From: Ostreococcus lucimarinus
Taxonomy: Eukaryota
Direction: 5' to 3' (one strand)
NCBI GenBank assembly: GCA_000092065.1
Contig: CP000592.1
Length of the DNA: 64,000 nucleotides
Shown in pieces: positions 17,723-61,771 of this stretch. A model generated the notes under the pieces. It ran no database searches. It was not told the origin of the DNA and saw only the letters and a list, made by a program, of their open reading frames with translations. Each line of letters opens with the position of its first letter. Positions within the stretch are counted from its first letter, which is position 1. Both the position numbers and the translations under genes were made by a program.

Positions 17723-19120
17723 CTACTGCGAGCGGTCGAGGACGAGCGCGAGAGATGAATCGTCGGGAACGAGCGCTTCGAAGTGGCCGGGAAAGTGCTT
17801 GACGCACAGCGCAGGGATGGTATCACCGCCGTGGCGGCAGCGGCGGCGCGCGATGGCGGCGGTAACGAGGGAGAGGGTGAAAGTTTCGCGCGCGCGGCGG
17901 CAACGCCACTCGACGGTTTTACCGTCGCGACGAAATCGACCGTCCGCGAGGTATCTCGCGGGTGCGAAAGCGCGGTGTCTTTCGTCGCGACGCGGTGCGG
18001 CGAGGAAGAAAGGTGACTTGGCCGTCGCTGGGACGCGTTCGTCCGTCGTCTCCACGCACACGATGGCTACGTCGTTGAGACTCGCGATGGCGCATAGCTC
18101 GGCGTCGGTGCCCCAAAAGCGAGTCCAGATTTTCGTCGCCGTGTACGGTGCGGCGTCCTTACGCATCGTGCGAATGTACTCTTTGAAGCGCTCGTCGTCG
18201 CTCGCTCGCTTAAATTTGCCAACGCGCAGGTAGCGTCGCCCCTCGTCGCCGTTCATCAGTAGGTTGTATAGCGCACGTATTTCTGTCCTCCCGCGCATCT
18301 CGTTCCGCCGTTTCTCTAATTCGTCGCACATTCGCGCTCGAATGTCGCGCCAATCCGATCCAGCGCGTTTAACATCCCAAAGTTTATGCCTCGCGAGCGC
18401 CTTGACGCCGTGAGCGATGGACCGAAAACAACAATTTCCGTCCTCGACAACGCCTTGCACGCGCAAGCCCAACGCGCGCGTCTGCGAACTCCAATGACTG
18501 TTCTCTTTGCGTGCTTTTCCCACCGCACGCGCCTCGCCGACGAAGATGACATCGCTCGCGCTCGCGCTTGCGCTCACGCTCGAGCTCGAGCTCGAGCTCG
18601 ACGTCCGCCGCGTCGTTTCGCTCTCGACGTCCTCCACGCGCACTCGCCAACCGCGCGGTCGCAACTGCGCTGGCATCGTCTCCGCCGTCGCGACGCGTTC
18701 TAGGACCGCCCCCGCGAGCGCTGATCCACGCTCTAAAAGCTTTCGAGCGTACTTTGTTCCCATGGAACGACCCTCGCGCGCCGCGGACGTCTCGCGCCGC
18801 CGCGCCGCGGACGCGCGTCGATACGCCGCGAGCAATGTCATCGACGCCAGCGCGAACGCGCGCGTCGAACGAAACCCTAAACGGCCGTACGAAACACATA
18901 AAGCGATGAACTCGGCGTAGACGCGCGAGTTCTGCGAAATCGACAGCTCGAGCGCGCGAAAGAGCGCGCGAGAAGCGCGAGTGATGTCGGCGGCGGACGC
19001 GCGTTTGCCGTCGATTTTTCGCGCCGCGCGCGCCGCGGCGACGGCGAAACGCCTGGACGCGGCGTCGCGTAGCTTTCGTTTGGCACCGCGCGTCGCGAGC
19101 GCGACGCGCATGGCGCGCAC
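17723..19120 (-). CDS. OTU-domain cysteine protease (putative deubiquitinase)
   Basis: The OTU catalytic Cys motif VVEDGNCCFRSIAHGV and the downstream motif HFEALVP are present. A poly-Ser linker precedes the OTU domain. Confidence 0.6.
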   Translation of the reverse strand: MRAMRVALATRGAKRKLRDAASRRFAVAAARAARKIDGKRASAADITRASRALFRALELSISQNSRVYAEFIALCVSYGRLGFRSTRAFALASMTLLAAYRRASAARRRETSAAREGRSMGTKYARKLLERGSALAGAVLERVATAETMPAQLRPRGWRVRVEDVESETTRRTSSSSSSSSVSASASASDVIFVGEARAVGKARKENSHWSSQTRALGLRVQGVVEDGNCCFRSIAHGVKALARHKLWDVKRAGSDWRDIRARMCDELEKRRNEMRGRTEIRALYNLLMNGDEGRRYLRVGKFKRASDDERFKEYIRTMRKDAAPYTATKIWTRFWGTDAELCAIASLNDVAIVCVETTDERVPATAKSPFFLAAPRRDERHRAFAPARYLADGRFRRDGKTVEWRCRRARETFTLSLVTAAIARRRCRHGGDTIPALCVKHFPGHFEALVPDDSSLALVLDRSQ

Positions 19121-21594: not shown

Positions 21595-22047
21595 TTACTT
21601 GAGCGGGATGAACTTGGAACCGGCGGCGAGACCAGCGCGACCGTGCGACACCGGTCTGTACGTGATCGCGTACTCACCGAGGTACGTCCCAATCATCTCC
21701 GGCTTGATTTCAACCGTGTTGAACACCTTGCCGTTGTACACGCCGACGACGGAGCCAACCATCTCCGGGATGATGGGCATGTTTCTCAAGTGCGTGCGCA
21801 CGGTTTCCGGCTTCTCCATACCCGTCACCGCCGCCTTCGCCTTACGAAGCTTCGCGACGAGCGTCTTGTGCTTGCGCACCAAACCGTTACGCTTGAATCG
21901 ACGACGAATGCGCGCGTTGAAGAGCGTCACGAGCTTGTCGTTTTTCAATTCAAGCAACCCCTCGAGATCGATCCCGCGGTACGAAAACTTCTTGTACGGG
22001 TTCTTCTTACGCGGAACCCCGACGAGGGCGTCTTCTTCAGCCGTGGA
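21595..22047 (-). CDS. RPS15: 40S ribosomal protein S15 (uS19), main coding exon; the initiator ATG is not in this exon
   Basis: [97 protein letters not shown] is near-identical to eukaryotic S15. The 5'-most in-frame codon is GTG, and an acceptor cgcgcag| at 22048 lies 28 nt after CTGACG, so a 5' exon is expected upstream (see findings). Confidence 0.85.
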
Positions 22048-22718
22048 CTGCGCGCGTCGCACACGTTCGCGCTCTCGTCAGTCTCTCTCGTCGCGTCGTC
22101 GTTAGGGCTTTGGCCCATCGCCCCCCCCTCGCGCGTCCCTCGCGCGCCCCCCCCCCACGCCGCCGCCGCCCGCGCCGTCGCTCGAGCGCGCCGTCTCAAA
22201 ACATCCCCCACGTCCTCGCGCGCGCGTCCGCGCCCCTCTCCGCGCGCGCGCGTCGTCCCGTCGCGATCGCGCGTCGCCCCGCGATCGGCGAAACCCCACG
22301 ACGGGCGTCACCGTCGTCGCCGTCGGCTCGCGCGTTCGCGCGCGCGCGCGCCCCGTCGTCCCGCGTCCCGCGCGCGTCGAAATCGTTCGCGTCGTCCGCG
22401 CCGTCGAGCGTCGCGACGCACCATGTTCGCGTCCGCGTCGCGTCGTGGAAAGACGGCGCGGCGCTCGCGGCGCGCGCGCGCGCGCGCGTTGGTTTTACGA
22501 TCGACCCACGCGTTCGCGATGATGGGCTTCGATCGCGCTTCAACGCGCATCCGGCGCGTCGTGCGTGCGCGCGAAGGTCTGGTGGCGTGCGTCGCGGGTC
22601 GATCGATCGCGCGCGTCGCGATCGAACCTCGCCGCGAGGTTCGATCGAGTCGCGCGACCGGCGCGTCGTCGATCGAGCGGTGCGAACCGACCGGACGACG
22701 TCACACCGACGCGCGACG

Positions 22719-31586: not shown

Positions 31587-32102
<516 letters not shown>

Positions 32103-32431
32103 TCACGTCGTTCTTTCGTCGAACGCGCGCGCGTCTTCGCGTTCCGCGTCTCTTTTCCCGCGTCTCGTCTGCGCGCGCGCCCCGCTCCTGGATCTTCACC
32201 ATCGCCCGCGCGTGATCTTCCACCGCCCACGTCCCGCGCGCGCCTGTCCCGCGCCGTCCGACGCGCGCGACCGATGTGACGGATATCCACGCATCATCCG
32301 AGCGCCCGCGCGACGCCCGCGCGACGTCGCGCGCGCGCGCGGCGTCCCGATTCCGTCTGAACATCCATCTTGTCGCGAACGATCTCACGTCGCGTGCGTC
32401 CGCGTCGTGCGTCGCGCGCGACTCGACGTAC

Positions 32432-32497
32432 CATCAGAATCCGCATCTCCTTCTTGGAGAACAGGCGCTGGAAGAGTTTGGCGAACGTGATGCCCAT
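32432..32497 (-). CDS. ARF1: ADP-ribosylation factor 1, exon 1 (MGITFAKLFQRLFSKKEMRILM), followed by a GTACGT donor
   Basis: ATG at 32497-32495. The exon ends ...CTGATG|GTACGT, giving a 365-nt intron (32067-32431). Joined to exon 2 it yields a 181-aa ARF with the myristoylation site Gly2. Confidence 0.85.
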
Positions 32498-60894: not shown

Positions 60895-61188
60895 TTATTC
60901 TTCCTCGTTGTCGTCCGCGATGTTGAAGTATCTCAACTCGTACACGTTGCGTTCCTTGTTGGACGCAATCACGCGCAACCAATCACGAACGTTGTGCTTC
61001 TTGAGGTACTTCTTCGTGAGGTACTTCATGTAGCGCTTGCTCATCGCGACTTCGCTCGTCACCGTCACCTTCGTCTTGTCGCTCGACACGCTCACCGCCT
61101 CGCCGAGCGCGCCCGCCTTACCACCAACCTTGATACGATCGGTGAGGAACGCGGTGAACGAACCAATCTCCATAATCTTGTCCTCGAC
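60895..61188 (-). CDS. RPL22: 60S ribosomal protein L22 (eL22), last exon
   Basis: [97 protein letters not shown] is near-identical to plant eL22. The acceptor aatag| is at 61189-61190. Confidence 0.88.
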
Positions 61189-61290
61189 CTATTCGCATCA
61201 AAGAATATCGCATCGTCAGTCATCGTCCCTCGTCGTCGTCTCGAGTCGCGCGTTCGCCGCTCGCCCTGTATTTTAGGGTTTCACACGCAC

Positions 61291-61337
61291 CGGCTTCGCG
61301 CAGTCGATGACAAAGGTGGAAACCTTCTTCTTCGTGT
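61291..61337 (-). CDS. RPL22: eL22 internal exon (…DTKKKVSTFVIDCAKP), bounded by a TAG acceptor and a GTGCGT donor
   Basis: KKKVSTFVIDCAKP matches the eL22 N-terminal block KKK.VSFTIDCSKP of plants. The donor GTGCGT sits at 61290-61285 and the intron 61189-61290 has a CTGACG branch motif about 27 nt before its acceptor. Confidence 0.7.
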
Positions 61338-61553
61338 CTACGCCCGCGAAAACATCCCACGCATCGTCAGTCGTCTCTCCAACTCGCTTCACTCGCGCGC
61401 ATCCGCGTTCCCACGACGCGCGGCGGCGACGACGATCCATCCCGCCGATCGACCCATCGCGCGTCGGTCGCGCCCGCGCGCCGTTTCTCGACGCCGCGCC
61501 GCGCCGTCGTCGCGTTCGACGCGCCGTCGTCGCGGCGAGAATATCGTTCGCAC

Positions 61554-61566
61554 CTTTCGGGGCCAT
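61554..61566 (-). CDS. RPL22: Putative 13-nt first coding exon of eL22 (ATGGCCCCGAAAG, Met-Ala-Pro-Lys-Asp, phase 1), followed by a GTGCGA donor
   Basis: Splicing 61554 to 61337 gives MAPKDTKKKVSTFVIDCAKPVEDKIM..., a canonical eL22 N-terminus. The proposed 216-nt intron (61338-61553) has a CTGACGATGCG branch motif 31 nt before its TAG acceptor. The same region stays in frame if unspliced, so this is inference. Confidence 0.45.
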
Positions 61567-61771
61567 GATGTCGTCGACGGGCGCTGTCGCGCGCTTCAAA
61601 GAGGCGTCGCGCGACGGCGCGGTCGCCGCGGTCGATGCGTCTGTCGTCCGTGTGTGACTCGAGACCGCACCGGACCAATCAACCACCGCGCGCGCCTCGG
61701 CGCCGCGCGCGTTCCCTCACACGACGACGCCGACGCGCGCGCGATGGACGCGGCGACGGACGCGGACGCGG

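Follow-up and report, generated by a model that had tools for sequence, protein, structure and literature searches.

A predicted start-codon-only first exon in the ribosomal protein uS19 (S15e) gene of Ostreococcus lucimarinus and its counterparts in other Mamiellales

Introduction

Start-codon introns, which interrupt a gene in phase 0 after the ATG, are a described class in which ribosomal proteins are over-represented (Nielsen & Wernersson 2006, PMC1626468). Exon 1 ends exactly with the ATG in 20 of 73 human genes for ribosomal proteins (Yoshihama et al. 2002, quoted in PMC1626468), and Table S2 of PMC1626468 lists chicken rig (ribosomal protein S15) and the rice 'putative 40S ribosomal protein S15'. 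Here we describe the gene of the same protein, uS19 (S15e, called S15 below), in a stretch of 64,000 nucleotides (nt) from Ostreococcus lucimarinus (GCA_000092065.1, contig CP000592.1), which is called the window throughout. The gene lies on the minus strand, positions are those of the window, and a slash inside a sequence marks a splice junction.

Like the members of this class, the S15 gene of the window would be interrupted in phase 0, by an intron placed exactly between its first and second codons. We consider it very probable that exon 1 codes for the ATG only, and that a 374-nt U2-type GT-AG intron joins this ATG to TCC ACG. A start-codon intron is annotated at the same place in O. tauri, whose V2 annotation is RNA-seq-guided and manually curated, with 89% of the introns validated (Blanc-Mathieu et al. 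2014, PMC4378021).

Results

Gene structure and protein product

The mechanically listed open reading frame (ORF) 21595-22062 opens with GTG, and no in-frame ATG is found before ..TGMEKPE, well into the conserved domain. The original prediction started from this lack of a usable in-frame ATG, which was confirmed by our reading. In the minus strand, read directly, the start codon is followed immediately by the donor GTGCGT (...cgccgTCTTTCCacgacgcgacgcggacgcgaacATG/GTGCGTcgcg...), and the acceptor ..gcgcgcag leads into exon 2 (...gagagaCTGACgagagcgcgaacgtgtgcgacgcgcgCAG/TCC ACG GCT GAA GAA GAC...), which ends in the stop codon TAA at 21597-21595. The positions predicted for ATG plus GTGCGT (22424-22416), for cag/TCC (22048/22047) and for the 374-nt intron between them are correct to the base. 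The CTGACG branch motif is present as well, although the A of its CTGAC lies 31 nt ahead of the first base of exon 2 and not 30 nt, as had been given. GTGCGT, CTGAC and CAG are the signals of a U2-type GT-AG intron (extended donor consensus, branch motif at 20-40 nt before the acceptor, YAG).

The spliced product has 151 amino acids (aa) and scores 103.2 bits (E = 6.7e-30) with Pfam Ribosomal_S19 (PF00203), well above the curated cut-off of 27. Over its whole length, and with 50 invariant columns, it can be aligned to eukaryotic uS19 proteins of 145-153 aa from plants, oomycetes and algae; splicing would give the N-terminus that had been predicted. The N-terminal extension (..PKK or RKK..KF.YRG.DL), the C-terminal ..FIPLK and the length are those of eukaryotic uS19 (~145-153 aa), and identity to land-plant orthologs is ~60%. 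The gene is that of the cytosolic ribosomal protein uS19 (S15e) of an O. lucimarinus-type alga.

Intron 1 behaves as non-coding sequence: it contains stops, its length is not bound to multiples of three (374 mod 3 = 2), and it diverges faster than exon 2. GC makes up 78% of the intron and 58% of exon 2. Without splicing, the frame that opens at the ATG at 22424 runs into a stop after 38 codons, and in the frame of exon 2 itself stops are found 13 and 21 codons upstream of that exon. The mean intron length reported for O. tauri is 140 nt (Blanc-Mathieu et al. 2014, PMC4378021), and the S15 intron is thus long for Ostreococcus. No Rfam family matched inside 22048-22421, the sub-threshold matches being all upstream of the ATG, with the clearest of them on a promoter palindrome at 22600-22663, and an intron-hosted small nucleolar RNA was rejected for lack of Rfam support in the intron. 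A repeated introner element was also rejected: blastn of intron 1 against the 64-kb window gave the self match and one marginal match of 29 nt, with no intron copies.

Conservation in Ostreococcus

We compared 22 loci, comprising the window type, a 'GQPRKK' variant, O. tauri, two 'SAEEE' clades and an O. mediterraneus-like clade, counted as five lineages. The cross-clade comparison was anchored, as a MAFFT alignment of the whole 5' region misaligned ATG/GT and was set aside. In 22 of the 22 loci a single ATGGTRMG is found upstream of exon 2, at the same relative place. ATG/GTRCG, CTGAY and CAG/TCY are kept across the five lineages, and CTGAY lies 29-33 nt before the invariant CAG/TCY in every locus. 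Between these signals the intron varies, with lengths of 249, 251, 372, 373, 374, 404 and 417 nt (the 373/374 difference occurs within one population). The identity between the window and the other Ostreococcus is 65-68% in intron 1 versus 85-88% in exon 2.

The O. tauri ortholog (XP_022840131.1 / CEF99958.1, on CAID01000012.2) is a protein of 151 aa (MSSQAEEDALIG...), encoded by a gene of 828 nt with a coding sequence (CDS) of 456 nt. Its structure reads ...gctcgaccATG/GTGCGCgcg...gagaCTGACctcgacgaacgcgttctcgcttcgCAG/TCC TCG CAA GCC GAA GAA..., with a start-codon intron of 372 nt. It shares with the window the exon 1 that codes for ATG only, the GTGCG donor, the CAG/TCC junction, the protein length and the synteny (a divergent DUF1350 gene upstream and Mak10 downstream), and both TGGGGTTT and AAAGCCCTA are found inside intron 1 of the two species. 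CTGAC is 29 nt before the junction in a 372-nt intron in O. tauri, and 31 nt before it in a 374-nt intron in the window. The two loci differ in the intron, which is only ~68% identical (exon 2, 85%), and in codons 2-5, SSQA in O. tauri versus STA in the window. The O. tauri model is complete and curated, whereas only a fragment of 137 aa, incomplete at its 5' end, is public for O. lucimarinus (XP_001420853.1).

Spliced transcripts in relatives

Removal of the orthologous intron can be seen in transcripts of related algae. The protein P0006 belongs to a sister clade and comes from MERC, for which the poly(A)+ metatranscriptomes of Tara eukaryotes were assembled at the protein level with Plass. 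It reads ..LYSTQRTAR-M-SAEEEALVG, that is, residues encoded in the 5'UTR (5' untranslated region) and Met joined to exon 2. In the genome locus L012 the corresponding sequence is cgt ctc tat tcg acg cag cga acg gcg aga ATG/GTGCGT, a 404-nt intron, and cgcgCAG/TCC GCC GAA GAA GAA. P0006 matches L012 across this intron, which means that nine 5'UTR-encoded residues, Met and exon 2 are contiguous in RNA.

In two Micromonas species S15 has a start-codon intron, as predicted in the window, and it is removed in intron-less transcript contigs. In M. commoda RCC299 (XP_002507596.1) an intron of 316 nt follows directly after the start codon (ATG/GTACGC), and in M. pusilla CCMP1545 (MICPUCDRAFT_30685) one of 467 nt (ATG/GTGCGC). 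Two contigs (L029 and L031) are otherwise identical to these genome loci and lack exactly the 316- and 467-nt intervals. The M. commoda protein MSEEDAL.. is also present as an MMETSP transcript ORF. On the other hand, the Micromonas introns are unrelated to that of the window in length and composition, the second codons are AGT and GGT, and the neighbourhood differs, with Mak10 and DUF1350 on opposite sides.

In the Bathycoccus prasinos genome locus (L034) we read ..aaattcatcATG/GTACGT (..ttcatcATG/GTACGT), followed by a 518-nt intron with TACTAAC and by the acceptor ..ataataaacag/CCG AAA GAC ACG TCC GAA GAA, where exon 2 opens with CCGAAAGAC. The ATG/GTACGT comes from this genome locus and is outside the stretch that was read of the metagenomic locus L032. 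As far as these sequences go, the intron position is common to all three Mamiellales genera examined (Ostreococcus, Micromonas and Bathycoccus). The start-codon-only exon of the original prediction is therefore supported by O. tauri, by the five Ostreococcus lineages, by P0006, and by Micromonas and Bathycoccus, and we infer by orthology that the intron is removed in O. lucimarinus as well.

Alternative readings

Some observations weigh against this structure. No transcript or transcript-derived protein of O. lucimarinus itself was found in the protein collection or in the JGI contigs, and the O. tauri model is backed by a general validation statistic rather than by gene-specific evidence open to inspection. 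The frame from 22550 to 22424 is open, with an in-frame ATG and no intervening stop. Finally, the O. mediterraneus MMETSP ORFs P0167, P0170 and P0189 retain intron 1.

None of nine conceivable spliced or extended proteins was present, by exact look-up, in a collection of 15 billion proteins; this is weak evidence, because transcript-derived ORFs probably carry in-frame 5'UTR residues. In the JGI metagenome contigs the exact 29-mer of the spliced junction had 0 matches, and a degenerate junction pattern for four Ostreococcus clades had 5, all of them by chance in soil bacterial contigs. These contigs likewise lack the sister-clade junction that is seen in the Tara data, so the collection is one without such transcripts, and the result is uninformative rather than negative. 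A homology search with the N-terminal 70 aa returned only the intron-retaining ORFs of O. mediterraneus type. S15 of this type has an extra phase-2 intron 2 (RIRRR/FKRDG), absent in the window species (compared with L020 2515-3390). Intron 1 is kept and intron 2 removed in P0170, while both are kept in P0189, so partly spliced S15 RNA is abundant enough for assembly in O. mediterraneus. Such retention is compatible with the spliced model and does not contradict it. In the window species a retained intron gives no in-frame ATG. The retention is a hint that the removal of intron 1 may be slow or regulated.

The open frame could indicate that the same donor and acceptor are used with a longer coding exon 1, starting at the in-frame ATG at 22550-22548 and adding 42 residues (MRVEARSKPIIANAWVDRKTNARARARRERRAVFPRRDADAN) before MSTAEED. 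The automatic NCBI model of Bathycoccus S15 is extended likewise, to 251 aa. However, an ATG of this kind is absent in O. tauri, in L012, in M. commoda (where a stop lies 5 codons upstream) and in M. pusilla, and the transcripts of relatives start only ~30-60 nt 5' of the conserved ATG, at a pyrimidine motif. The 151-aa product already aligns end to end with eukaryotic uS19 of 145-153 aa, and the extended protein of 193 aa is not in the 15-billion-protein collection; we regard this longer exon as very unlikely. Still less credit can be given to an unspliced mRNA translated from the non-AUG codon GTG at 22062 into a protein of 155 aa. This 155-aa ORF is reported by metagenome gene callers in hundreds of contigs, and O. 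mediterraneus does have RNAs that retain intron 1, but its 'RRAQ' codons are the acceptor region itself (..gcgcgcag), and the other clades show VLASQ, FLAQ or FSRAQ there, with TTG or other 'starts'. A scanning ribosome on the unspliced RNA would meet the ATG at 22424 first, and with it a dead-end ORF of 38 codons. Besides, splicing at the orthologous junction is seen in relatives, and the O. tauri gene is annotated with the intron.

ATG/GTGCGT could also be a chance motif, the true first exon or acceptor being elsewhere. The 9-mer ATGGTRMGY occurs 3 times in the window versus ~2 expected, so it is not enriched and proves nothing alone; what counts is position and conservation. Its third copy (ATGGTGCGT, 37638, +) was tried as a start-codon exon and rejected, since a long ORF encloses it and its occurrence in coding sequence seems to be a coincidence. 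The probability of finding ATGGTRMGY by chance on the right strand within ~500 nt 5' of an orphan exon is roughly 0.01. Only 4 ATG-initiated, stop-free exon-1 candidates can be joined in phase 0 to the acceptor, and the other three all begin at the ATG at 22550 and have poor donors (GTTGAA, GTCGAT and GTCTTT). No space is left for another exon, as the start of the divergent DUF1350 gene is a few hundred bases upstream, and the position of ATG/GT is kept across three genera. We therefore give a coincidence no more weight than the GTG start, and retain the ATG-only exon 1.

Transcription start and proposed processing

In P0006 the sequence opens with 'MG' and continues with LYSTQ, at the homologous gTCTCTATTCG of L012; that is, it begins at the place in L012 homologous to TCTTTCC of the window (..LYSTQRTAR from gTCTCTATTCGACG..). 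The ATGGG behind 'MG' is presumably the adapter tail of the SMART/Smart-seq template-switch oligo (...ACATGGG). According to the Tara data paper, inserts of this kind still carry SMARTer adapter sequence at their start. With 'MG' as adapter tail, the sister-clade mRNA would begin at TCTCTATTCG. In M. pusilla the first bases of the transcript contig L031 are GGGG+CTCTTTTACTCG, where the genome has cCTCTTTTACTCG.

We infer that S15 transcription in the window starts at TCTTTCC, 29 nt upstream of the ATG. With the start at this motif, exon 1 would be ~32 nt long and the upstream ATG at 22550 would be outside the mRNA. We propose the following course of events. Transcription would most likely start at the pyrimidine-rich TCTTTCC, ~30 nt 5' of the ATG at 22424, giving a first exon of ~32 nt that ends exactly with the start codon. 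An ordinary U2-type intron of 374 nt would then be excised with the donor GTGCGT, the A of CTGAC 31 nt before the junction and the acceptor CAG. The phase-0 junction of ATG and TCC ACG GCT... would then yield a normal uS19 of 151 aa. The features of the gene are collected in Table 1.

A TCT/TOP-like pyrimidine motif is observed ~30-60 nt 5' of ribosomal protein start codons, in S15 and also in eL22 of the window (~61596-61604, minus strand, gcCTCTTTGaag). The same motif is found in relatives, at ~2581-2590 of L012, ~1439-1447 of L030 and ~840-860 of L034. The 5' ends of P0006 and L031 fall on it, which suggests that the ribosomal protein genes of Mamiellales have a TCT-type initiator.

Table 1. 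Features of the uS19 (S15e) gene in the window, listed in the direction of transcription
Feature	Position	Strand	Remark
TCTTTCC pyrimidine motif, likely transcription start region	22447..22453	-	sole pyrimidine run >=6 within 90 nt 5' of ATG
Predicted exon 1, ~32 nt (short 5'UTR and start codon)	22422..22453	-	3' end set by the donor; 5' end approximate, from transcripts of relatives
ATG, sole coding bases of exon 1	22422..22424	-	ortholog of the start annotated in O. tauri (L001 3001-3003); ATG/GT in all lineages examined
5' splice site GTGCGT	22416..22421	-	GTRCGY also in ARF1, eL22 intron 2 and orthologs
Intron 1, 374 nt, phase 0	22048..22421	-	signals and comparison with orthologs
Intron block TGGGGTTT, degenerate reverse telo-box	22291..22298	-	kept in four Ostreococcus lineages
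Intron block AAAGCCCTA, TGGGCC just before it here	22103..22111	-	kept in Ostreococcus relatives
Branch-point-like CTGAC, A at 22078	22077..22081	-	CTGAY at 29-33 nt in all Ostreococcus orthologs
3' splice site CAG	22048..22050	-	CAG/TCY invariant in 22 Ostreococcus loci
Exon 2 CDS, codons 2-151 and TAA, ends KFIPLK	21595..22047	-	PF00203; identity to XP_001420853.1

First exons of ARF1 and eL22

The original prediction saw S15 as part of a recurring pattern of very short first exons in highly expressed genes, with ARF1 (ATG/GTACGT) and eL22 as further examples. ARF1 (31593-32497, minus strand) has its start ATG at 32497 and a first exon of 66 coding bases. The ATG/GTACGT at 32434 is codon 22 (MGITFAKLFQRLFSKKEMRILM/VGLDAAGKT; ..KKEMRILM/VGLDAAGKT), so that this ATG is Met22 and the exon is not a start-codon exon, while the splice signals are indeed of the same kind. 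Its single intron (32431-32067, minus strand, 365 nt, with GTACGT, gACTGACg and CAG) is verified by homology on both sides. eL22 (60898-61566, minus strand) has its ATG at 61566 and three coding exons, of which the first comprises 13 coding bases (MAPK+G; ATGGCCCCGAAAG) and not the ATG alone; its splice signals are of the kind predicted. Intron 1 (61553-61338, minus strand, 216 nt) reads GTGCGA...TAG, exon 2 is 61337-61291, and intron 2 (61290-61189, minus strand, 102 nt) reads GTGCGT...ATAG. ACTGAC is found in the ARF1 and eL22 introns at a distance to the junction similar to that in S15.

First exons thus contain 3 coding bases in S15, 13 in eL22 and 66 in ARF1. What stands of the proposed pattern is a tendency, with a 5' bias, towards short first exons, which is a known phenomenon and not a new one; the ATG-only exon is found in S15 alone.

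Public gene models

The public S15 protein of O. lucimarinus CCE9901 (XP_001420853.1) is a 'predicted protein, partial' of 137 aa that starts with KKNPYKK and has no start codon; the ORF of the window is identical to it over all 137 aa, an identity on which the assignment to O. lucimarinus rests. The proteins closest to this ORF are prokaryote-style ORF calls from marine metagenomes, and the cluster look-up points to Ostreococcus. Prokaryote-style callers report exon 2 as a complete GTG- or TTG-initiated 'S15e' of 154-155 aa in hundreds of contigs (e.g. L002-L019), and an NCBI metagenome-assembled genome carries a Micromonas-type homolog under the label '30S ribosomal protein S19 [Acidimicrobiaceae bacterium]'. 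All of them are mis-called starts, and the 'Acidimicrobiaceae' case is a mis-binned picoeukaryote contig. The NCBI model of S15 in Bathycoccus prasinos (OZ116814.1, L034 601-1874) is a 251-aa 'unnamed protein product', apparently over-extended through the open 5' region. The conserved ATG/GTACGT of this locus stands at 895-897/898, with a TCT-rich motif before it, and would give a protein of normal length (M-PKDTSEEDAL).

The practical use of the present analysis is that the S15 gene model is completed and an incomplete public entry repaired. Exons that code for ATG only are systematically missed by gene finders, and the same repair is probably due in other highly expressed Mamiellales genes.

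Telo-box-like motifs in the introns

TGGGGTTT is found ~124-139 nt into the S15 intron in four Ostreococcus lineages. AAAGCCCTA occurs once in the 64-kb window versus 0.08 expected, and is kept in intron 1 of O. tauri, L012 and L015. In the O. mediterraneus-like lineage (L020) it is in intron 2, and TTAGGGTTC is in intron 1. An exact TAGGGTTT, which is the plant telo-box AAACCCTA in reverse, occurs in both Micromonas S15 first introns (L028 and L030). An exact AAACCCTAA is found in eL22 intron 2 (61273-61281, minus strand), the window holding 2 in total versus 0.02 expected. The second copy (18872-18880, plus strand) falls within the mechanical ORF 17723-19120 (minus strand), towards its 5' end, in what may be the 5' region of the gene rather than coding sequence; to judge by its translation, this ORF looks like an OTU-type protease.

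The start-codon intron could be kept throughout Mamiellales for promoter-proximal regulatory DNA. Its candidate elements are telo-box-like, namely T[AG]GGGTTT and AAAGCCCTA in Ostreococcus, TAGGGTTT in Micromonas and AAACCCTAA in eL22, and they would act jointly with the TCT/TOP-like initiator. This reading is a tentative idea that we hold to be rather unlikely. If it were true, the control of cytosolic ribosomal protein genes by telo-boxes would be older than land plants. The O. mediterraneus transcripts in which intron 1 is retained and intron 2 spliced could likewise reflect the removal of intron 1 as a regulated step. With two ribosomal protein genes in hand, the telo-box-like blocks are a lead only; they and the pyrimidine start motif are the sole parts of this analysis that might open something new.

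A near-perfect palindrome (..cgactcgatcgaacctcgcggcgaggttcgatcgcgacg..) was observed at 22600-22663, on both strands, in the divergent promoter region of S15 and DUF1350, where Rfam gave only sub-threshold microRNA-like matches.

Comparison with known systems

In plants, telo-boxes (AAACCCTA) and site II elements (TGGGCY) form a module in ribosomal protein genes; Chlamydomonas ribosomal protein genes are reported to be without telo-boxes, and the differential modulation of organellar ribosomal protein genes by telo-boxes is described as specific to land plants (Wang et al. 2011, PMC3212954). Telo-box-like motifs just downstream of the start of a ribosomal protein gene are common to this module and to the loci described here, and TGGGCC-AAAGCCCTA and TGGGGTTT in the S15 intron of the window parallel it. 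Unlike the plant module, the motifs in the Ostreococcus S15 intron are degenerate, and the likeness concerns two ribosomal protein genes, S15 and eL22.

The S15 structure belongs to the ordinary start-codon introns; it was on record for animals and plants and is annotated in O. tauri. The novelty comes down to two things, namely that the gene model of O. lucimarinus type can be completed and that Ostreococcus, Micromonas and Bathycoccus have the intron position in common. The biological gain is small, as S15 start-codon introns were already known from chicken and rice and the position is now extended to three prasinophyte genera. Hosts of this class are described as short, lysine-rich, highly conserved proteins without a signal peptide (PMC1626468), and the uS19 of the window resembles them as a short (151 aa), lysine-rich and highly conserved ribosomal protein.

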